This document shows, piece by piece, positions 124 through 28,798 of a DNA stretch of 32,977 bases. Location: IMG/VR virus record IMGVR_UViG_2713896908_000011, positions 1-32,977 of that record; one strand, 5' to 3'. A model generated the notes under the pieces. It saw nothing but the letters and a program-made list of their open reading frames with translations, made no database searches and was not told where the DNA came from. How positions within the stretch are numbered: position 1 is the first letter of the stretch; every line of letters starts with the position of its first letter. Source of the stretch: a virus (Duplodnaviria > Heunggongvirae > Uroviricota > Caudoviricetes). The translations under genes and the position numbers were made by a program.

Positions 124-3100
124 CGTCCACCTCCGGAGAACAGGCCACCATCACGCATCTGTGTCTGAATTTCATCACGGGCACCCTTGCGGGCCATGTC
201 ATACACCGCCTTCAGAGCAGCCGGACCTATCTGCCCGTTCGTGCCGTCGTTGTTAATCACCACATGGTTATTCTGCTCAAACATCGCCATACCTGAACCA
301 CCAATATTTGCCACAACCCCCAGCTTACCGTCAGCACCACGGCGCAGTGGCAGAATGGCTTCAGGTCCCGCTTCCCCCATCACACCCGCGCCTTTTGCAA
401 AAGCAAAAAACGTCGGTCGGTTAACCACCGTGCCGCTGTAGCGACTCAAATCAGCCGACTGATAAACGCCACCATCAGCATTGGGCGTCACACTGGCAGC
501 GGCAGCACTCCCCCAGCCAAACGCCGAACCAATCCCCTTCACCGCCTGCATCATGGCCATCTGCGCCATAATTTTTGCCAGATCGGAAAGGAGTGAGGCG
601 GTAAAAGATTTGAAGTTCAGTTTTCCGGTGGTACAGAAGGTCGCCAGTGCATTACCAGCACTGTTAAATGCCGCTGTAAGCATCTGCTCAGCAGTGCCTG
701 CCGCATTATCCGCATCTGCCGTGAAATTCTGAAACGCCCGCATGGCACCGTTTTTCCAGTTACCCTGAGCAATTTCAAGCTGTTGCCAGTAACGGCGATT
801 CTCATTCAGTTGTCGGTTCAGGCTCTCCGTCAGCGCCTGCTCGGCCTTTCTGTAGTCATCCGTGTTATATGTCCCTTTCTGCTCACTATCCCGCCTCAAC
901 TGCTCCAGCTGTTGCTGGTATTTCTGGCGAAGACTCAGTTGTACCTGATATCGCTGCCGCTGCTGATCACCCATACCCACCGTGGCGATATCCAGGTCAT
1001 GTTGCTGACGCTGAGCGCGCTCTTCTTCAGCCAGTTGACTGGTCAGCTGAATTGTTTTTTTCTTCAGATCGTTGAGTGCCGTCTGTTTCTGAAGCTCCTG
1101 CTGTTTTACATCCAGCAGCGTCAGTGCCTGAATCAGTTCATCTTTACTGGCCAGCACACTCTTTTCATCTGCCGTCAGTTTTTTCCCGTCCAGATCGCTG
1201 ATGCGCTGCTGCAGAGCCAGAAGCTGTTTATGCGCTTCTGTCATCCTGTCAGTGGCAATGCCTGCTGACTGTCTTACAGCAGCAATCTGTCCTTCCACCT
1301 GTGCCTGTTGCTGGCTGTACTGCAGCAATAACCGGGTGGCCTCATCATTACGGGTTTCGCGTGTTTTTTTCTTACCGGATGCCAGGGCTTTCTCGTAACG
1401 TTCATTTTCACGTTGTATCGCCGCATCCCTGACAGCCTGATCGGCGTACTGCATGGCATTAATACGCGCAATTTCACGCTGATGTCGTGCTGCTTCCGTT
1501 TCATTCATCCGGTTCAGTGCAGCATTTTCAGCATTACGGCGTTTCTGTTGCTCCTGATAATTCCGCTCTGCCTGCTCTTTTGCATCCTGCAAATCCTTCT
1601 GGCGTTTTTTCTCCTGAAGATCGTTAAGACGCTGCTGATCGTATTCAACCTGAGAAGATGATGCCGTCCAGGGGAGTCTTTTCGCCCGCGACACTTTCTC
1701 CTGCAAAGTGGCAATCTGCGCATCCAGCGAGTCTTCACGACCAATATTCATGGCCGCATCCCAGAACTGCTTCCACCAGTCAGACAAGGTTTGCAGCGTA
1801 CTACCCAGCGCATTGAGGTTATTATCAATATCCGCAGTACGCCGACCGGTTTCCTCTGCCAGTGCAGACATGGCTATCCGTGCCGCATCACTGGACCGCC
1901 CCTGCTCTCCAAGGACGCGTATCTGCTCAAGCTGAGTGGCAGTAAGAAAATGCAGCTCATTGTCCAGAGACTTCGCGGCATTTACAGGATCATCCTTCAG
2001 CCGCTTAAACTGATTTATGGTATCGCTGACCGACTGGCCAACCGATCGCTCCATCTGTGCGGCAGCTCTCGCCACCATACCGATATCGTTTCCACGAAAT
2101 GCACCACTCCCCACCACCTGAGCAAGCGCACCGGCTGCAGCATGTTGCGTGATACCATTCCCGGAAATAGCACGACTGAGCGTCCACAGCTGCCCGGCAG
2201 TGACTCCGGCATAATGCCCCGTCAGCGACAGCTGGCGGTTAAATTCTTCCCCCTCCTTCTGACCGTCATACCAGGCTTTACCCAGACCATAGACAGCCGC
2301 GGCAATACCGCCAATAACCGCTCCTGGCATCATGCCTTTCGGTGACATCAGTGTGTCTATCCATCCGGCACGGTTAGCCAGCGTTATCCCGGATCCCCTC
2401 AGCGCCCCTAAATTGCCGCGGGCCAGTTCACCTATCAGAACGCCTATCTCCTGGCGGGCTGCTGCACTTTTCAGACCCAGCGAATGCGTGGCTTTTCCTG
2501 CCTGCTCCATTTTGCGGATATACACTTCTGCAGCACTGCTTACCCCCAGCTGGGCTGCCTTAGCACGAAGCAACTCAGAAGATGAAAGATTCTGGCGGGT
2601 TGCCTGCTCTTTAAGCTGACGGATAAACGCCACTTTCTGTCGGGTAGCCTCTTCCTCAGCCTGTGTAAGAACACGGGTTTTCGCAGTAACCTCAGAAATC
2701 AGCGCCAGATAATCCTGCTGGCCAATCCCGCCACTGTTTCTGGCCTGTCGGATCTGCTGCTGAATACGCTGTAATTCCTGCAGCCCCGCACTGGCCTGTT
2801 TCACACTGTCAATCTGACGATAAAACGCAGCAACCGCTTTATCCTGAGCCTCCGCCAGAGCCATGGCCTGCGCCTGTTCCTCGCGCATTTTCTGGCTCAG
2901 TGCCTCCATACGCTGGCGGGTTTGCTCCACCTCGCGGGCCATGCGTTCATGAGCCTGTGCGTTCTTCTCCACCGTCTGCGCATGGACGGATGCGGCTGTT
3001 GCAGCCGAAGACGCCGCCTGCGTTGTCTGCCGGGCGGCCTGAGTCTGACGCTCCATAAAACGCTGCATACGGGCAGAAGACCGTTCTGCATCGCTGGCTG

Positions 3101-3194
3101 CACCATTCAGAAGGTTTTTGATACGGGGAATTTCATTTTTAAACTCTGCCGCATCAATCCCCAAATCAATGACCAGGTTGGCTATCTGGTCCAT
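120..3194 (-). CDS. H: tail tape measure protein (lambda gpH-like)
   Basis: 1034-aa ORF (120..3224), Q/A/R/E-rich and coiled-coil-like, sitting between the G/T chaperone genes and M. Segment MDQIANLVIDLGIDAAEFKNEI resembles the lambda H N-terminus, so start is placed at the internal Met (3194); the track start at 3224 is the alternative. Confidence 0.9.
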   Translation of the reverse strand: MDQIANLVIDLGIDAAEFKNEIPRIKNLLNGAASDAERSSARMQRFMERQTQAARQTTQAASSAATAASVHAQTVEKNAQAHERMAREVEQTRQRMEALSQKMREEQAQAMALAEAQDKAVAAFYRQIDSVKQASAGLQELQRIQQQIRQARNSGGIGQQDYLALISEVTAKTRVLTQAEEEATRQKVAFIRQLKEQATRQNLSSSELLRAKAAQLGVSSAAEVYIRKMEQAGKATHSLGLKSAAARQEIGVLIGELARGNLGALRGSGITLANRAGWIDTLMSPKGMMPGAVIGGIAAAVYGLGKAWYDGQKEGEEFNRQLSLTGHYAGVTAGQLWTLSRAISGNGITQHAAAGALAQVVGSGAFRGNDIGMVARAAAQMERSVGQSVSDTINQFKRLKDDPVNAAKSLDNELHFLTATQLEQIRVLGEQGRSSDAARIAMSALAEETGRRTADIDNNLNALGSTLQTLSDWWKQFWDAAMNIGREDSLDAQIATLQEKVSRAKRLPWTASSSQVEYDQQRLNDLQEKKRQKDLQDAKEQAERNYQEQQKRRNAENAALNRMNETEAARHQREIARINAMQYADQAVRDAAIQRENERYEKALASGKKKTRETRNDEATRLLLQYSQQQAQVEGQIAAVRQSAGIATDRMTEAHKQLLALQQRISDLDGKKLTADEKSVLASKDELIQALTLLDVKQQELQKQTALNDLKKKTIQLTSQLAEEERAQRQQHDLDIATVGMGDQQRQRYQVQLSLRQKYQQQLEQLRRDSEQKGTYNTDDYRKAEQALTESLNRQLNENRRYWQQLEIAQGNWKNGAMRAFQNFTADADNAAGTAEQMLTAAFNSAGNALATFCTTGKLNFKSFTASLLSDLAKIMAQMAMMQAVKGIGSAFGWGSAAAASVTPNADGGVYQSADLSRYSGTVVNRPTFFAFAKGAGVMGEAGPEAILPLRRGADGKLGVVANIGGSGMAMFEQNNHVVINNDGTNGQIGPAALKAVYDMARKGARDEIQTQMRDGGLFSGGGR

Positions 3195-3503: not shown

Positions 3504-3893
3504 TCAGGACTTTTCCGGCGTCAGCACCTCATGCTCCAGATCCCCGGCATTCTCAATGGCACCCATACCGCTCAGCGACAGAACCATCTCCGCCCCCGCT
3601 CCCAGGGCATCATACGACCATGTTGTAATAACGGATGCGCAAAGCGTCTCAACATCCTGAGACTGTTCCGCATTCCACAGTGAGCGGGAAACCAGCCAGG
3701 CATTGATATCCATCCCCATCCGCAGAAAAGCAATCTGTCGTTCAGCCTCCGGCAGTTCTCCCTCTTCGGCATCAAACTTTGCCGTTCGCTGCTGAACAAA
3801 CGCCAGATATTCAATTCTCTGCAGCCCGGACAGCTCACTGAGCACCACGGACTGCTTTTCATAATTAAACGTGCCCTGTTTCAGAAACATCAT
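3504..3893 (-). CDS. G: tail assembly chaperone G
   Basis: Translation from the internal Met (MMFLKQGTFNYEKQSVVLSELSGLQRIEYLA...) parallels lambda gpG as I recall it (MFLKTESFEHNGVTVTLSELSALQRIEHLA...). GGAG Shine-Dalgarno precedes the ATG at 3893; the track ORF extends to 3932 but that stretch holds a terminator hairpin. Confidence 0.8.
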   Translation of the reverse strand: MMFLKQGTFNYEKQSVVLSELSGLQRIEYLAFVQQRTAKFDAEEGELPEAERQIAFLRMGMDINAWLVSRSLWNAEQSQDVETLCASVITTWSYDALGAGAEMVLSLSGMGAIENAGDLEHEVLTPEKS

Positions 3894-3906
3894 GTTCTCC
3901 ACCTGC

Positions 3907-3930
3907 AAAAAAGCCCCGGATAACCGGGGC
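3907..3930 (-). terminator. rho-independent terminator after major tail gene V
   Basis: Perfect hairpin GCCCCGG-ATAA-CCGGGGC (plus 3913..3930); on the minus-strand transcript it is followed by a U6 run (plus A-run 3907..3912). Lies between the V stop (3951) and the G start (3893). Confidence 0.7.
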
Positions 3931-3950
3931 AAATGATGAGTATCGTCCTG

Positions 3951-4694
3951 TTAACCTGCGGCGCTGACAGCCACCGTAGCCACTGCCACAAAATCGCCGT
4001 CAGAAGTCATGCCCACAATGCTGACACTGCCCTGCTTCACGCCTTTCACCGTGGCCACAAGCCCGTTCAGAGTCACCGTGGCAGTCTGTGGATCTGTCGA
4101 ATGCACACTGATCGCTTTGTCACTGGCTCCGTCAGGTTTTACTGTAAAGGTCAGCGTGGTGGTTGCTCCCACTTTTACACTGGCAGATGCCGGTGCCACC
4201 GTCAGCCCGGTAACGCTCACGGTTTCAGTGCCTTCCTCTGCCAGATACGGACGCCCCACACCGCTGATTTTCACAGTGCGGGTCATCACGTCTTTTGAGG
4301 CAATGGTTTTACCCAGTGAGCTCAGCCAGCCGCGGAAAACATCAACAGTACCGTTGGGATATTTGATACGAAACGCGCAGACTTCACCGGAGTCGAACAA
4401 CTGAACCAGTTTTTTCTGCCCGCTGTCACCCGGACGCCAGGCCAGCGTCGCCGAAGTATCACCAACGGATTTCTGCCCCTGGGTTGTCGTTTTCCAGTCT
4501 GCATCCTCATCATCGAGATAAGTGTCATCTTCTGCATCAGCGGTCATTTCGCCAGGTTGCAGATCCTTCACCATCGCAAGACGCAGCCAGTCAGTGTCCG
4601 ACAAAGGGTTCGCAAACGCATCGCCGTTGCCGGTATACATCCAGAACGTCGTCCCCGCACCTTTCGTCTTTGCCAGTGGATTTGGTGTGGTCAT
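3951..4694 (-). CDS. V: major tail protein V with C-terminal Ig-like (Big_2-type) domain
   Basis: From the internal Met, MTTPNPLAKTKGAGTTFWMYTGNGDAFANPLSDTDW... closely parallels lambda gpV; AAGGAGGTG Shine-Dalgarno precedes the ATG at 4694. The C-terminal T/V/S-rich repeat region looks like the Ig-like domain. Confidence 0.9.
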   Translation of the reverse strand: MTTPNPLAKTKGAGTTFWMYTGNGDAFANPLSDTDWLRLAMVKDLQPGEMTADAEDDTYLDDEDADWKTTTQGQKSVGDTSATLAWRPGDSGQKKLVQLFDSGEVCAFRIKYPNGTVDVFRGWLSSLGKTIASKDVMTRTVKISGVGRPYLAEEGTETVSVTGLTVAPASASVKVGATTTLTFTVKPDGASDKAISVHSTDPQTATVTLNGLVATVKGVKQGSVSIVGMTSDGDFVAVATVAVSAAG

Positions 4695-18137: not shown

Positions 18138-18947
18138 TCAATGAACGGTATCGAGCAGCTTTAACAGCTCAGGGAATCGGGATTCGAAGAAATGCGGCTG
18201 CGTCTCGCGCGGATTTGCGGGACTGGTGATGTTCTTGCCGAACATGCAGCCTTTCGCCGTCAGCGACCAGAATTTTTTGATGTTGTTAATCGCAGTGCGG
18301 CTGTATCGTTCACGTTGTTCAACGATCCCCAGCTTCGCCATCTGGTGATATGCCTGATTAGCTGTCAGGCGGATACCATACTGCTTCAGCAGTGCACTCA
18401 GTGACAGCGTGGGGCGGCTTGAGCCATCAGGCGCGTCAGCAGGAGCATCAATGGCATAGCGCGGTGCCAGATTCGGTAAGCCAACAGCCTCCTGGAGTTT
18501 CTGACAGGCACCAAGCACTGAAGAGTTAGACAGGTTTAACTCCCGGCGCATAAAGTCCAGCAGGATCACGCCAGCCTGCATCTTGTCAGCAGCCTGCCCG
18601 GATAATTTTTCCGGTGTGCTGGTTATCATATCGAAAGTACGGATCACCTTCAGATGGAATGACGGGCTGATCCACATTGCATAGGCATACACCAGTTCCT
18701 TGCAGACATAAGTTCCCCGTTCATTTCCCCCATGAATCACACTCACCGGGTCAACACCCAAATTCTGGGTGTTGGTCAATTCATGAACAAGCTCAACAGT
18801 CTGTTGGCTGGAAAGAAACTTTCCCGGCTCCTTGGTTCTGGCATTTGCACCAGATGCTACTGCTGCGCGATGCAGATCGTTCAGGCTGTAACGCCCATAA
18901 GCATCACGACGAACTTCAATACCATCAATGACCATCAGATTATTCAT
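18138..18947 (-). CDS. KilA-N domain protein
   Basis: N-terminal MNNLMVIDGIEVRRDAYGRYSLNDLHRAAVASG...HGGNERGTYVCKELVYAYAMWISPSFHLKVI fits the KilA-N DNA-binding domain pattern. Confidence 0.7.
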   Translation of the reverse strand: MNNLMVIDGIEVRRDAYGRYSLNDLHRAAVASGANARTKEPGKFLSSQQTVELVHELTNTQNLGVDPVSVIHGGNERGTYVCKELVYAYAMWISPSFHLKVIRTFDMITSTPEKLSGQAADKMQAGVILLDFMRRELNLSNSSVLGACQKLQEAVGLPNLAPRYAIDAPADAPDGSSRPTLSLSALLKQYGIRLTANQAYHQMAKLGIVEQRERYSRTAINNIKKFWSLTAKGCMFGKNITSPANPRETQPHFFESRFPELLKLLDTVH

Positions 18948-19431: not shown

Positions 19432-20085
19432 TCATGCCGCCATCTCCCTGACCAGTTTTTCTGCCTGCTGGCGAACCTGCGCCAGAAAGGCCTCACCACA
19501 TGCCTCAAGTTCATCGCGCCCGATGTAGCTGATTGCCGGTCCCTTCCAGGTCTTGTCGAAAACAGCAATAGCACCAGCAAAGAAAGCGCCTGTCGGCACC
19601 TGCTTCTCGTCCTTCGGGATAAACCAGGCAGGCAGTTCAAAACCAATACGCCCGCGAATAAAAGCAATATGGTCCGCATCTTCCGGCCACCACACTTCAC
19701 TGGTGGCAGCTTTGATCAGGAAAACATAGCGCCCGCCTTTATCACGCATGGCACTGGCATGTTTCATGATGTAACGCATGCCGGTGATGTATTGCCCCTC
19801 ATGCTGACTGGCGCGGCTGTATGGGGGATTACCAAAGGCAGCACCTTTAAGCTCCGCAAGACGTTCTGACCAGTCATGCGCCAGCGCGTTGTCTTCCGCC
19901 GTGTAATACGCGGCACATTTGGCGTTATCACCGTCGGTGAACAGATCCAGAACAAACGGGCCAAACAGGGTGTTAATTCCCCAGAAAATGTTGTCCGGCG
20001 TGCGCCACTGATCGCCCACTTCCTTCAGTTCATGGGCTGGTTTGTTCCGCAGTTCCACCAGCGCCTGGCAATATTTATTACTCAT
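19432..20085 (-). CDS. phage N6-adenine DNA methyltransferase (Dam-like)
   Basis: Motif IV FGNPPYSR (the DPPY/NPPY signature of N6-adenine methyltransferases). Start set at the Met whose ATG overlaps the upstream gene stop (TAATG); the track start at 20118 is the alternative. Confidence 0.8.
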   Translation of the reverse strand: MSNKYCQALVELRNKPAHELKEVGDQWRTPDNIFWGINTLFGPFVLDLFTDGDNAKCAAYYTAEDNALAHDWSERLAELKGAAFGNPPYSRASQHEGQYITGMRYIMKHASAMRDKGGRYVFLIKAATSEVWWPEDADHIAFIRGRIGFELPAWFIPKDEKQVPTGAFFAGAIAVFDKTWKGPAISYIGRDELEACGEAFLAQVRQQAEKLVREMAA

Positions 20086-20579
20086 TAAGCCCCCACGTAA
20101 TTCCCTGACAGATACCACTCTTCACCCGATGCAGCGCGCTTGCTGCTTTTCCGTAAGCACCGCTCACGACGCGCCAGAAAATTGTTTCGTTCTGGCTGGG
20201 AGTGGCTTTCACGGAATGCCGCCATCCACACCGTTGCAGCACGACGGTATAAGCCCCTGGACTCCAGTTCTTCAGCCTGGCGGGTCAGGCACAAAATCAC
20301 TCGGGGATCGTTAGTGCCGACATAGAAATTGCGCACAGGTCTGGTTTCACGAACTGGTTGTGGTTCCGGCTCCTGCGCTCTCTCAGTCAGGCGCGGGAAA
20401 TGTCTGCGTGTATCTCCTTCACAACGGTGAGCCACACGCCCACTCTGACGTAACTTGCTTGCTGACTGCAGAACGCGCTGCCGTGAGTAACCTGCAAAAG
20501 CATCCGCAATGTCTCCGGAAGTACACCCCGGATGGGCTTCAATGAATTTCTGAACGTCATTCAAAAGACTCATAATCAC
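20085..20579 (-). CDS. PerC-family transcriptional regulator homolog
   Basis: C-terminal ...AEELESRGLYRRAATVWMAAF...ERNNFLARRERCL resembles the PerC/Pch signature (LE..GLWRRAA..W). The N-terminal ~60 aa look like an extra winged-helix-type segment. Confidence 0.6.
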   Translation of the reverse strand: MIMSLLNDVQKFIEAHPGCTSGDIADAFAGYSRQRVLQSASKLRQSGRVAHRCEGDTRRHFPRLTERAQEPEPQPVRETRPVRNFYVGTNDPRVILCLTRQAEELESRGLYRRAATVWMAAFRESHSQPERNNFLARRERCLRKSSKRAASGEEWYLSGNYVGA

Positions 20580-21517
20580 CCCCTGAATCCTGCCGGGATC
20601 TGGCTGTAGTCCACGTTGTCGTAACTGGCTTTGAAATACGAGTCTTCGCGTTTTTCGGTGTACGTGCTGACGGACGGCGATAAGCGCAGGGAAAGCTCAT
20701 CCCATTTTTCCCGCAGCTTCGACGGGCTGAGCACGTTACGGCACCAGAACGGATCGCGACTGACGCGGCTGTACATCTCGCAGATTTGTTTGTGAGTACG
20801 ACCATCCTGCACACACATCAGGCGAATTTCGTTTGCCCAGGCTGTCCAGTTCGGTTCTTTGGGACGAACCACCTCGCCGTCACATTCGGCGGCCTGCTCG
20901 TACAGGGCGATGATTTTTTTCCAGAGCCACTGTGCGCAGGTCAAATCATCCTGCGTTCCCCACTGGCGCTTTTTAGGGCTGAATACAACCGCATCAGGAT
21001 GGCGAGTTAAAAACTCCTGTTCAGCCGTCTGCGTGTCCGGTTGCGAAGCGTCCGGACGAGAAGGTTTTTTATCTGACGGATCATGTTTTGATTTTACTGA
21101 CGGATCCCCGCCAGATTCTGACGGGTGAAAACCCGCTTTTTTGCCAGATTTTGACGCATCAAATTTTGACGGGTCAGATTTTGATGCGTCAGATTTTGAC
21201 GGGTCAGAATCTGACAGTTGAGAAAAAGCTGCAGCCTGAAGCTTCGCAACGTTAAGCTGATAAACATTCGACGCATTGCGGTTACCCTGGCGACGCGCCT
21301 TACGCGTTAACCAGCCTTCTGCTTCCAGCCGTGCGATAGCCATTCTGACGGTACTCATCCCCGCGCCAATCTGGCGGGCAATGGTTTCAATTGATGGCCA
21401 GCACACACCTTCGTCATTACTGAAATCAGCCAGGCGGGCCATAATTGCCACGCTGGATAATTTCATGCCTGATGCAGCGCAACCATCCCATACATAGCCG
21501 GTTAATTTAGTACTCAT
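20576..21517 (-). CDS. O: replication initiation protein (lambda O-like replisome organiser)
   Basis: N-terminal HTH (...SIETIARQIGAGMSTVRMAIARLEAEGWL...), a central low-complexity repeat (SDPSKSDASKSDPSKFDASKSGKK) encoded by DNA iterons, and a C-terminal domain; same layout as lambda O with an intragenic ori. Confidence 0.8.
   Translation of the reverse strand: MSTKLTGYVWDGCAASGMKLSSVAIMARLADFSNDEGVCWPSIETIARQIGAGMSTVRMAIARLEAEGWLTRKARRQGNRNASNVYQLNVAKLQAAAFSQLSDSDPSKSDASKSDPSKFDASKSGKKAGFHPSESGGDPSVKSKHDPSDKKPSRPDASQPDTQTAEQEFLTRHPDAVVFSPKKRQWGTQDDLTCAQWLWKKIIALYEQAAECDGEVVRPKEPNWTAWANEIRLMCVQDGRTHKQICEMYSRVSRDPFWCRNVLSPSKLREKWDELSLRLSPSVSTYTEKREDSYFKASYDNVDYSQIPAGFRG
21072..21219. repeat. 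iteron array (candidate origin of replication) inside the O-like gene
   Basis: Tandem ~15-bp direct repeats read directly: cagattttgacgcat (21145), caaattttgacgggt (21160), cagattttgatgcgt (21175), cagattttgacgggt (21190), cagaatctgacagtt (21205), plus degenerate copies at 21072..21126. Confidence 0.75.
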
Positions 21518-21526
21518 GACCGACCT

Positions 21527-21865
21527 CTATTTCCCTGAATTTACGACGAAACTGTTCGAGCGGACTGAAGCATTCATGCTCATAGCCTTCGCGGAGGTAG
21601 ATAACCCGTTGTGTTTCCGGTTCCCAACGAATGACTCTGACGGGTACTCCGTAGTGATCTTTGAACCAGCGGTTAACTTGTCGCAAAGGACTGTCTCCTT
21701 TTGTCGGTTGAAATCACCCACAGCCCACTCTGCAAAGCTGTGGGTTACAATTTCCCTGTCACCTGGTACATTCACTGCATAGCAATACTCCACCTTCGCT
21801 TTTCCACCCGGTACAGGAAGCGCAATCAGTTGCGAGCGACGGTAGTGTGTTGTTAAACTGTTCAT
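21527..21865 (-). CDS. hypothetical protein, translationally coupled to the CII-like gene
   Basis: 112-aa ORF whose ATG overlaps the upstream stop (ATGA); no recognisable motif. The plus-strand ORF 21516..21782 is judged antisense. Confidence 0.45.
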
Positions 21866-22470
21866 GCGTTAGTTTCTCCACAGTCACGACACGCCACGGC
21901 GCCCGGAGCTGCACACTCGCGGGCGTCATTACTTTCTGAAATGCAAAAAATTTTGTAGACCAGTGCAGCATGCTCCTGCAGCTTCGAAATTGAGAGATAC
22001 AGCTCGTCGTTGATTGCTGTCTTCTCATGCGGTTCCACCACACCGTCTTCGATTGCCGAACGAATCTGTTTGGAATAACTGCCAATCTGTTCAATGACTT
22101 CCAGCAGGCGCTGGTTAATATCGGCGTTGTCCACATCCTCGACGTCAGGAAGAGACACAAAGACGCCATTTGCCGACTGCGCCACAGCGTCAGCAATGAA
22201 GTGAGTTCCACCAGCACGTTGCAAAATCATTGCCCATCCCAGCGGGAAAATCTGATCGCCATCGGCACGAAGGCGGTTAAATAATGCGCTCTCTGTTACA
22301 TCCAGCCAGTCAGCTGCTTCAGCGTAACCACCCGGCAACTTTGCGATAGTTTTTCTGACAGCTTTCACGTACCACTCAGGCTGTTTTTCTACTTTCCAGT
22401 GATGCTTACCCACGGTTAGCCTCATCGTTCTGTGGTTTCTGTTAATCGATTTATCCATTAGATTTTTCAT
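21862..22470 (-). CDS. CII-like/YdaT-like early regulatory protein
   Basis: First gene after cro in the rightward operon. Start is uncertain (candidate ATGs at 22470 or 22458; the track start at 22527 is a GTG overlapping cro). Family placement (Phage_CP76-type CII versus YdaT-like) is not resolved. Confidence 0.45.
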
Positions 22471-22651
22471 AAAGCTCAGGTTTAAATGGCAACCGTCCGC
22501 AAGTTCTATATGCAGCTTCTGCTGCACGTCCTTTTGGAATTAACTGGCCCGGACGGTTTCGCCACTGATAAACGGCTTCAGTTGTTATGCCGAAAAAAGC
22601 AGCAACTTTCTCAATACTGCCGAAGTAGCTTTCGATATCGTCAGTTGTCAT
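22451..22651 (-). CDS. cro: Cro-like/YdaS-like HTH repressor
   Basis: 66 aa, divergent from the cI-like gene across a 97-bp intergenic region; ...EKVAAFFGITTEAVYQWRNRPGQLIP... fits the Cro/YdaS-type HTH. Confidence 0.7.
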   Translation of the reverse strand: MTTDDIESYFGSIEKVAAFFGITTEAVYQWRNRPGQLIPKGRAAEAAYRTCGRLPFKPELYEKSNG

Positions 22652-22748
22652 ACGCCCTCCAAACTAAGTTTTATTAGATGCTAATTACAAATCTATCTTT
22701 GGTCAATAAAAACTAAGATTACTTAGCAATTCAAGAAATGGTGCTCCT
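22652..22748. promoter_or_regulatory. divergent promoter/operator region (OR-like) between cro and cI
   Basis: Contains palindrome ATTAG-atg-CTAAT (22673..22685) and inverted repeat CTAAG-atta-CTTAG (22713..22726), plus a further CTAAG at 22664. Confidence 0.55.
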
Positions 22749-25954: not shown

Positions 25955-26491
25955 ATGTCATTTATTAAAACTTTTTCCGGGAAGCATTTTTATTATGACA
26001 GGATAAATAAAGACGACATCGTTATTAACGATATCGCGGTTTCCCTTTCAAATATCTGCCGCTTTGCCGGTCATCTTTCTCACTTCTACAGCGTAGCCCA
26101 ACATGCGGTGCTTTGCAGCCAGCTGGTGCCGCAGGAATTTGCTTTTGAAGCGTTAATGCATGATGCAACAGAAGCGTATTGCCAGGACATCCCCGCACCA
26201 CTGAAACGCCTTCTTCCTGACTATAAACGGATGGAAGAAAAAATAGACGCCGTAATCCGTGAGAAATACGGGTTACCTCCTGTTATGAGCACGCCAGTGA
26301 AATATGCCGATCTCATTATGCTGGCAACCGAACGCCGCGATCTCGGGCTTGATGATGGCTCTTTCTGGCCTGTACTGGAAGGCATCCCGGCAACAGAGAT
26401 GTTCAAAGTTATTCCACTGTCGCCAGGCCATGCCTATGGGATGTTTATGGAACGTTTTAACGAGTTATCGGAGTTACGCAAATGCGCATGA
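25955..26491 (+). CDS. HD-domain phosphohydrolase (YfdR-like 5'-deoxynucleotidase)
   Basis: Start at internal ATG with GGAGAA Shine-Dalgarno (MSFIKTF...), giving 178 aa. HD motif elements ...VAQHAV... and ...LMHDATEAY...; follows the YfdQ-like gene. Confidence 0.7.
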   Translation: MSFIKTFSGKHFYYDRINKDDIVINDIAVSLSNICRFAGHLSHFYSVAQHAVLCSQLVPQEFAFEALMHDATEAYCQDIPAPLKRLLPDYKRMEEKIDAVIREKYGLPPVMSTPVKYADLIMLATERRDLGLDDGSFWPVLEGIPATEMFKVIPLSPGHAYGMFMERFNELSELRKCA

Positions 26492-27986: not shown

Positions 27987-28604
27987 ATGAACGCTATTAC
28001 TAAAGAACGTATTGAATTATTCATTAAAAATCCGTTTGAAAACGGACTTACCCATGGCGAACAAATGGAACTGGCACGGATTGCGCTGGCATCGTTGGAA
28101 GCAGAACCGGTGGCATGGCTGCATTCAGACAATGGATTAGGTATTCCAGCAATAACCAGGAGTAAAAACATTGCTGACAGTTGGTTATCAAAGGGCTGGT
28201 ATGTTCAGCCGCTATATATAGCCAAGCCAGTGCCGGTGGTGCCAGATGCTCTTCCGTCTTTAAATAATGGCATAGTCGGCTTTGATGAAGGCTGGAACGC
28301 CTGCCGCGCCGCCATGCTTCGTGGTGCCAAACCTGTAAGCCAGACTTACAAGTTGAACGAGCTGTCGGGCAACTCTCCGGTAACTCCGGATGGTTGGATA
28401 AGCTGTAGTGAGCGAATGCCGAACGATAAACAGTATGTTTGGTGTTGGGGGAAGTCTTACGGCTGGACTGAGTGCGATACCTTCGAAGGGTATTACGATT
28501 GGTCGAGAAACAAATGGTGGGCAGTTACTGACAATGGGGAAGAACCGGCATCGAAAGTAACCCACTGGATGCCGCTACCGGAACCGCCGCAGGAGGTGAA
28601 GTAA
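27987..28604 (+). CDS. DUF551-domain protein
   Basis: C-terminal ...VTHWMPLPEPPQEVK is the characteristic DUF551 ending, with Trp-rich CxW repeats upstream. Confidence 0.7.
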   Translation: MNAITKERIELFIKNPFENGLTHGEQMELARIALASLEAEPVAWLHSDNGLGIPAITRSKNIADSWLSKGWYVQPLYIAKPVPVVPDALPSLNNGIVGFDEGWNACRAAMLRGAKPVSQTYKLNELSGNSPVTPDGWISCSERMPNDKQYVWCWGKSYGWTECDTFEGYYDWSRNKWWAVTDNGEEPASKVTHWMPLPEPPQEVK

Positions 28605-28798
28605 TGAACAACTTAATGACAACTAAACAAGTCGCCGACTTCTGTGGCGTTTCAGTATCGACCGTTCTTCGCTGGAACAGCGTAAACAGGAGAACTGGCC
28701 AGAAATACAGGCCTGAGTTTCCAGATCCGGATATTAAATCCTGCCCAAATAAATGGGCATCACACAAGATATACAGATTTGCTGGAATTATTGAGTAG
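28604..28798 (+). CDS. xis: AlpA-family HTH protein, putative excisionase
   Basis: 64 aa with GGAGGTG Shine-Dalgarno and a 1-nt overlap with the upstream stop. MTTKQVADFCGVSVSTVLRW...FPDP...W fits the AlpA/Xis-type HTH pattern; last gene of the early-left operon, nearest the integrase. Confidence 0.6.
   Translation: MNNLMTTKQVADFCGVSVSTVLRWNSVNRRTGQKYRPEFPDPDIKSCPNKWASHKIYRFAGIIE

Follow-up and report, generated by a model that had tools for sequence, protein, structure and literature searches.

Repeats inside the initiator gene of an SfIV/SfII-type lambdoid prophage as its probable origin of replication

Weigel and Seitz reportedly gave, in 2006, a general description of phage replication modules that includes initiator-only modules and in-gene origins, so the principle is not new. 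In the Gram-positive replisome organisers (SPP1 G38P with oriL, and the Rep proteins of TP901-1 and Tuc2009), an N-terminal DNA-binding domain recognises repeats located in the very gene that encodes it, and the iterons of lambda are about 19 bp long and spaced. The lambda origin lies in the middle of gene O and combines iterons, each of them an inverted repeat, with an AT-rich tract; lambda has four iterons and the Stx phages six, and the residues encoded by the added iterons are thought not to join in DNA binding (PMC7466680). For phi80, four gp15 binding sites are annotated inside gene 15 (GenBank JX871397). Here we describe a repeat array inside the replication initiator gene of a 32,977-bp stretch of viral DNA (IMG/VR record IMGVR_UViG_2713896908_000011; “the window” below means this whole stretch), which is an SfIV/SfII-like lambdoid prophage. 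We put at about 0.78 the probability that this prophage type has its replication origin in these repeats; from the sequence comparisons we infer that the initiator binds the repeated dyads and that the origin fires there.

Compared with these systems, the locus resembles the lambda and Stx origins in having repeated inverted-repeat sites in the central part of the initiator gene, with an AT-rich tract after them, in its predicted placement under pR transcription, and in a variable number of copies. Unlike in lambda, the DNA-binding domain is of the HTH_36 rather than the Phage_rep_O family, there is no P-like loader gene and so no O/P pair, the units are contiguous and 15 bp long, and the AT-rich part holds two invariant GATC sites. 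The original prediction of a lambda ori arrangement is supported by the identity of the initiator, the in-gene repeats between DNA-binding domain and C-terminal domain (C-domain), constraint at the nucleotide level and co-inheritance with the N-terminal domain (N-domain), with the qualifications that the DNA-binding domain is not of the lambda O family, the units are not spaced ~19-bp iterons and no P-like loader gene follows. With phi80 gp15 the window protein shares a homologous C-domain and the layout of N-domain, linker repeats and C-domain, but the gp15 N-domain is Phage_rep_O and does not align with that of the window, the site sequences differ (those of gp15 are TTCCCGAAAACGGGAA-type palindromes at 21-bp spacing), and gene 15 is followed by gp14, a P analogue with no counterpart at the window locus. 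SfV orf39, Min27 O, RAH1 O and the mEp460_4F5 gene (HTH_36-type or O-like) are similar in gene position and in having their own repeat family after the N-domain, but their repeats are unrelated in sequence and stand 21–24 bp apart. To the organisers of SPP1, TP901-1 and Tuc2009 the window sequence is only distantly related, if at all, with a weak DnaD_N similarity below threshold and, in the relative phiNP, a Phg_2220_C C-domain.

The strongest tandem repeat of the 33-kb window was placed by Tandem Repeats Finder at 21145–21208 (period 15, 4.3 copies, 83% matches, score 93), and its consensus, CAGATTTTGACGGGT, recovered the one given for tandem ~15-bp repeats in the original prediction. The degenerate copies that had also been claimed extend down to 21074 in the repeat search, all parts fall within the interval first proposed (21072–21219), and the open reading frame (ORF) in which they lie does encode a low-complexity linker there (...SDSDPSKSDASKSDPSKFDASKSG...; ...SDSDPSKSDASKSDPSKFDASKSGKKAGFHPSESGGDPSVKSKHDPSDKK...). 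The gene and the parts of the candidate origin are as follows.

20576–21517, minus strand: replication initiator gene, 313 amino acids (aa), defined by its ORF, its phrog_391 match and its identity to SfIV orf41.
21224–21517, minus strand: N-terminal winged-helix DNA-binding domain, aa 1–98, from Pfam HTH_36 and the AlphaFold2 model.
21143–21215, no strand assigned: five contiguous 15-bp units, each with a 13-bp dyad GTCA-N5-TGAC, candidate iterons, from Tandem Repeats Finder and from repeat and pattern searches.
21126–21142, no strand assigned: spacer separating the isolated dyad from the tandem array and containing a T6/A6 tract, read from the sequence.
21107–21125, no strand assigned: isolated 19-bp near-palindrome CCCGCCAGATTCTGACGGG, the sixth dyad, with 8 of 9 arm pairs complementary.
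21063–21106, no strand assigned: AT-rich segment, candidate unwinding region, from the GC profile and two copies of the CTGACGGATC half-site.
20576–21062, minus strand: C-terminal helical domain, aa ~152–313, exchangeable between phages, from similarity to phi80 gp15 and mEp460_4F5.

On the plus strand the five tandem dyads occupy 21143–55, 21158–70, 21173–85, 21188–200 and 21203–15, at a spacing of 15 bp, and the sixth lies at 21110; the GTCA-N5-TGAC symmetry holds with zero or one mismatch in all six. The window holds 24 dyads with at most one mismatch (13.1 ± 3.2 expected), these six being packed into 106 bp, and every match in the window to the 12-mer TCARAWTCTGAC at up to one mismatch falls within 21110–21215. 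The six sites (21107–21215) sit between the winged helix-turn-helix domain (aa 1–98) and the C-domain (aa ~160–280), and the A-run of the spacer and GTTTTCACCC are kept in relatives. A possible 30-bp super-period made by alternating CCG and GCA codons was discarded, as it is not kept in relatives. Elsewhere in the window, Tandem Repeats Finder reported three short, low-scoring repeats (18916–18937, 26435–26457 and 28602–28624) with a period of 10–11 bp and about two copies each.

The strongest evidence that this block matters as DNA comes from a comparison of codons with residues among relatives of the N-domain, for which we used eight genes from phage records and a further 80 loci of 3.3 kb each (one genome per Enterobacterales species, N-domain identity 58–99%). 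A 15-bp periodic array was found at the same place in all of these relatives, with about 3 to about 10 copies. Between the window and phiNP, the same codon is used at only 35 of 80 identical residues in the N-domain (87% aa identity) and at 43 of 44 in aa 99–151 (83% aa identity; Fisher p 2e-10), and the difference runs in the same direction in 9 of 9 relatives, being significant in eight (p 2e-10 to 0.03) and at p 0.1 in the most distant. The same contrast appeared column by column across 77 distinct genes (about 60 enterobacterial species): the mean fraction of the major residue is lower in linker columns (0.70) than in N-domain columns (0.82), whereas that of the major codon is far higher (0.89 vs 0.54; Mann-Whitney p 1e-17). 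The codons TCA AAA TCT GAC of the tandem units are nearly invariant in these genomes, with serine encoded by TCA in 55% of cases in the linker vs 13% elsewhere, lysine by AAA in 95% vs 66%, and aspartate by GAC within the TCTGAC units, unlike the GAT used at GATC positions. Where the linker does vary, the changes are non-synonymous, affecting the “x” codon of the S-D-x-S-K repeat and the first base of the lysine codon, positions that fall either in the spacer or within a dyad between its two arms. The non-tandem part (aa 130–150) is equally constrained.

Copies of the motif in more than one reading frame point the same way. In phiP27, KH16-043 and L085 (one of the 80 loci), an 18–23-bp motif, (G)TTT(T)(C/G)ACCC(G/T)TCAGAWTCTG(A/G), which is the homologue of the isolated dyad region 21107–21125, occurs twice and in two frames, so that one copy encodes F-D/H-P-S-D-S and the other V-L/F-T-L/R-Q-N-L, the two readings being also given as DPSESD and TLQNLT; another locus (L079) also has an out-of-frame copy. 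Across the 80 loci, the motif on the sense strand has 278 matches inside nucleotides 271–620 of the gene and 4 elsewhere. Copy number is polymorphic in steps of five residues among proteins more than 90% identical (303, 313, 318 and 323 aa), and some prophages have undergone repeat-mediated deletions. Judged from these alignments, purifying selection on 21063–21219 is at the level of nucleotides and not of the peptide, and neither slippage nor peptide selection explains the codon-versus-residue contrast together with the out-of-frame copies.

The second line of evidence is that the array travels with the DNA-binding domain. In phiNP, the N-domain and the whole block of repeats and AT-rich sequence are common with the window (match 21039–21509), and the C-domain is unrelated and of the Phg_2220_C type; in mEp460_4F5, the C-domain is 96.6% identical in nucleotides, with a match that ends at 21075, and the N-domain is unrelated and followed by a linker of five or six different repeats 23–24 bp apart. 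SfV is a third combination, with a C-terminal tail common to the window protein, and among 81 genes the block of N-domain and linker occurs with no fewer than three types of C-domain, and probably with four. At the corresponding place in the linker, the O-like genes of SfV, Min27, RAH1 and phi80 have repeat families of their own. Divergent lineages of the N-domain itself have the recognition helix KTTVSAAI.ELER instead of STVRTAI..LE and the wing ERKSGGRN instead of RR.GNRN, and there the GTCA...TGAC arms of the dyads are kept with spacers of AATAT, ACCGT or AAATT in place of (A/G)A(A/T)TC. The DNA-binding domain and the repeats have therefore been exchanged together as one specificity unit, as seen in the phiNP, mEp460_4F5 and SfV mosaics and in a motif that tracks N-domain subfamilies. 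Taken with the spacer changes and the distinct repeats of other O-like genes, the pattern points to the protein's own N-domain as the probable reader of the sites. The other arrays lie just after the N-domain, at 3034–3167 in the mEp460_4F5 locus (L003), 2900–3054 in SfV (L004), 1727–1792 in Min27 (L013) and 1712–1848 in Klebsiella RAH1 (L015), and the RAH1 units are palindromic (TGCCATCTGATGGCA).

The protein itself has the character of an initiator. Its full length is covered by a match to phrog_391 (“replication initiation O-like”; E 2e-134), and it also matches phrog_2514 (“DnaD-like helicase loader”) at E 1e-28, its RefSeq name being only “helix-turn-helix domain-containing protein”. In Pfam only the N-terminus is matched, by HTH_36 (PF13730; E 4.7e-10, 39.5 bits vs a cut-off of 25, aa 23–70) and more weakly by GntR, MarR-type and DnaD_N families, the last at 18.9 bits, below its cut-off of 27. 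A search for plasmid Rep families (RepA, pi and RP-C type) returned only RP-C, at 17.1 bits vs a cut-off of 24.4. An AlphaFold2 model built on 30 homologues has a winged helix at aa 3–99 in the order H-H-H-H-beta-beta and a confident helical C-domain (predicted local distance difference test, pLDDT, ~76–93 over aa ~190–280); pLDDT falls below 50 for aa 102–161, the repeat-encoded part, and the linker is thus predicted to be disordered. Foldseek searches with the winged helix gave generic MarR/ArsR-type matches only (E ≥ 1.8e-3), and among solved structures the sequence search gave marginal MarR matches (E 0.011) and no specific initiator. By BLASTP, aa 167–278 align with aa 174–275 of phi80 gp15 (35% identity over 114 aa, E 2e-25), and this gp15-type C-domain, attached to an N-terminus free of Phage_rep_O, means that the window protein joins a different DNA-binding domain to a bona fide lambdoid initiator C-domain. 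The last ~15 residues (..VDYSxIPxGFRG; window 20576–20640) are common to initiators with C-domains that have nothing else in common (types X, Y and Z); the tail is carried by the window, SfV, phiNP, LLS and many of the loci L016–L095, and is not present in phi80 gp15. Some host factor may dock on this short tail motif.

Directly downstream of the dyads in the direction of the gene lies the AT-rich segment, where the GC content reaches its minimum inside the initiator gene (0.325 at 21060–21099). Two CTGACGGATC copies (21073–82 and 21097–106) stand 24 bp apart, each with one GATC (at 21079 and 21103). The codons GAT CCG TCA GTA ... GAT CCA TCA of this segment are 87–100% invariant in the 77 genomes, and the two GATC sites (21079–21082 and 21103–21106) are fully invariant, with aspartate there encoded by GAT in 100%. 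GATC is not enriched across the whole window (117 vs 125 expected). Such conservation suggests, as a speculation, that the two sites might mediate methylation-sensitive control. A phage Dam methylase gene (19432–20118) is found in the same module, one or two genes downstream of the initiator, and follows the initiator directly in five relatives (phiNP, Kp1LV, LLS, KpF5 and 716R3); SfIV itself is without the methylase (PMC3851460).

Several observations weigh against reading the array as the origin. The N-domain does not match Phage_rep_O (PF04492) at E ≤ 0.01 in a search whose positive control, phi80 gp15, matches at 6e-25; since its DNA-binding domain is instead HTH_36, the initiator is “O-like” by position and role only. 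The AT-rich tract is short and only ~67% AT, no DnaA box lies nearer to the array than ~650 bp (12 occur in the window, which is at chance level, 8.2 ± 3.0), and no helicase loader gene lies in the segment of the window from the initiator to Q. The 15-bp spacing places neighbouring sites on nearly opposite faces of the helix, unlike the roughly two turns of classical iterons. Constraint at the nucleotide level proves a DNA or RNA function and not origin function specifically, and neither the SfIV genome paper (PMC3851460) nor the rest of the accessible literature describes an origin for this replicon.

The likeliest alternative is an array to which the initiator, or some other protein, binds in a purely regulatory capacity (an autoregulatory roadblock, titration, handcuffing or incompatibility), with replication starting elsewhere. 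Nucleotide-level constraint and co-inheritance with the DNA-binding domain would fit any initiator-bound array, the head-to-tail 15-bp geometry is atypical for origin iterons, and the AT-rich region is modest; yet neither the replication region nor the rest of the window has another repeat array or AT-rich candidate, the placement is that of lambda and phi80, whose in-gene repeats are the origin, and the constrained block also takes in the adjacent AT-rich, GATC-bearing segment. We therefore regard a solely regulatory array as unlikely.

We consider it very improbable that the array is simply a low-complexity peptide linker of S-D-x-S-K pentapeptides generated by replication slippage and devoid of any DNA function. 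In-frame units of five codons, copy-number shifts in 5-aa steps and predicted disorder, as in many linkers, would all be natural for such a peptide, but the codons are far better kept than the amino acids, the variation is concentrated at non-synonymous positions, the non-tandem aa 130–150 are under equal constraint beyond the reach of slippage, and the out-of-frame motif copies encode a different peptide. It is just as hard to credit some other element overlapping the gene, such as a second-frame gene, an RNA that is antisense or structured, or a conserved junction at which modules recombine, even though alternative frames are open across the repeats, an antisense terminator-like hairpin occurs at 21122–21135, and the block sits at the boundary where C-domains swap. 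Outside the coding frame, on either strand, the spans without a stop are short and vary between relatives, the alternative-frame ATG of the window is present in only 37 of 81 genes, and a conserved overlapping ORF would also be broken by the two-frame motif copies, which disrupt the alternative-frame peptide too. The only Rfam match, seen on both strands, was mir-5880, at 34 bits vs a gathering score of 97, which is an artefact of the palindromic repeats; a recombination junction, for its part, would need no 15-bp periodic pattern of dyads. The hairpin (CGGGTGAAAACCCG followed by T6) is on the plus strand, antisense to the gene, and inside the candidate origin, and was rejected as a conserved element because its pairing is not kept in relatives.

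If the array is the origin, as we favor, the N-terminal winged-helix domain, probably as a dimer, would bind the GTCA-N5-TGAC dyads in its own gene (21107–21215). The resulting nucleoprotein complex could then destabilise the neighbouring AT-rich, GATC-bearing segment (21063–21106), and the phi80-gp15-like C-domain would recruit host DnaB (with DnaC), a role assigned to it in view of the missing phage loader. As in lambda, transcription from pR across the site would probably help. Lying in coding DNA, the sites are translated into the disordered S-D-x-S-K linker, and 15-bp units of five codons could be gained or lost without a frameshift. The centres of neighbouring dyads are ~1.43 helical turns apart, so the initiator complex may differ from the lambda O-some; moreover, contiguity at 15 bp makes each half-site common to two overlapping palindromes (GTCA-N5-TGAC and TGAC-N2-GTCA), and with neighbours ~154 degrees apart on the helix a winged-helix initiator could polymerise as a continuous spiral filament. 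One might go further and see here an origin design in its own right and not a copy of the lambda one, with contiguous dyads, a spiral filament, a Dam/SeqA-sensitive unwinding element, a host helicase loaded without a phage loader and origin strength evolving in frame; we hold this only tentatively and think it rather doubtful. If true, it would mean that the filament opens a Dam/SeqA-sensitive element marked by the two invariant GATC sites and that the 5-codon unit lets origin strength evolve through in-frame gain and loss of sites.

The genomic setting is that of a lambdoid early-right operon. The initiator gene is 98.5% identical in nucleotides to SfIV orf41 and 97.8% to the SfII gene; SfIV, SfII, phiNP and LLS are complete phage genomes in the phage collection. 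On the minus strand, a divergent LexA-like repressor is followed by a pR-like promoter, a P22_Cro-type gene, a CII (CP76)-type gene, one or two small ORFs and the initiator gene, which thus occupies the O position of a cro/cII/O operon; downstream come genes for a PerC-like protein, Dam methylase, RusA, KilA-N, DUF968/HNH and the antiterminator Q. The promoter is a candidate:

22678–22706, minus strand: pR-like promoter, TTGACC-17-TAGCAT, a consensus match only, upstream of the P22_Cro-type gene (22451–22651).

A transcript from this predicted promoter would cross cro, the cII-like gene, and the initiator gene with its repeats. No helicase, helicase-loader, P-like or DnaC-like gene was found beside the initiator gene or from there to Q in the window, and no other replication gene was seen in that segment or among the annotated features of the examined SfIV, phiNP and LLS stretches. 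The gene next after the initiator (20085–20579, minus strand) encodes an activator of the PerC family (164 aa, ANR-like) and no helicase loader, and overlaps the initiator gene and its other neighbour by a few bases. Upstream of the initiator on the minus strand are two overlapping ORFs in different frames, 21507–21686 and 21527–21865, both with matches to PHROG families: the 59-aa ORF to phrog_1343 (PGAP “DUF4222”) and the 112-aa ORF, which is annotated in SfIV, to phrog_1170. Public annotations conflict on which is real.

An origin in such a place is the expected arrangement, but one that is un-annotated for a very common prophage type, the records examined carrying no origin annotation and the phage records among them annotating coding sequences only. 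The variant features of the predicted origin, read from the alignments, are its contiguous in-frame 15-bp dyads, the lack of a loader gene and the conserved GATC pair. A 401-bp region is present in 2104 of 5426 complete E. coli genomes, at ≥90% identity in all but seven matching records and ≥95% in nearly all, and SfII and SfIV, serotype-converting phages of Shigella, also carry it. Knowing the origin and what determines its specificity would aid the prediction of replicon incompatibility or exclusion among co-resident prophages, the design of minimal replicons, and the reading of read-depth peaks after induction, and would provide a testable system for a lambdoid initiator at work with no helicase loader of its own. 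The contrast between codons and residues also illustrates cleanly how a DNA element can override protein-level constraint within a gene.

Related copies also occur outside intact prophages. K-12-type chromosomes (L097 and L098, both 3627–4334; CPS-53/KpLE1 remnant) have an N-terminally truncated initiator pseudogene in which the repeats are kept (97.6% match to window 20950–21284), beside yfdN (PerC-like), yfdM (a Dam fragment) and yfdP. In PLSDB, circular “plasmid” records of 37–44 kb, such as NZ_CP081716.1 (L099, 37.7 kb), are whole SfV/SfIV-like phage genomes with no plasmid replicon typed, and are probably excised phage circles; as PLSDB matches are whole circular phage genomes, prophage-bearing records or records of chromosome size, they are not independent proof of autonomous replication. 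Finally, an Enterobacterales-type prophage gene with 81–88% identity was found in assemblies labelled as non-enterobacterial (Vagococcus sp., L023; Chryseobacterium sp., L047; Martelella alba, L052), where it likely derives from contaminating contigs.

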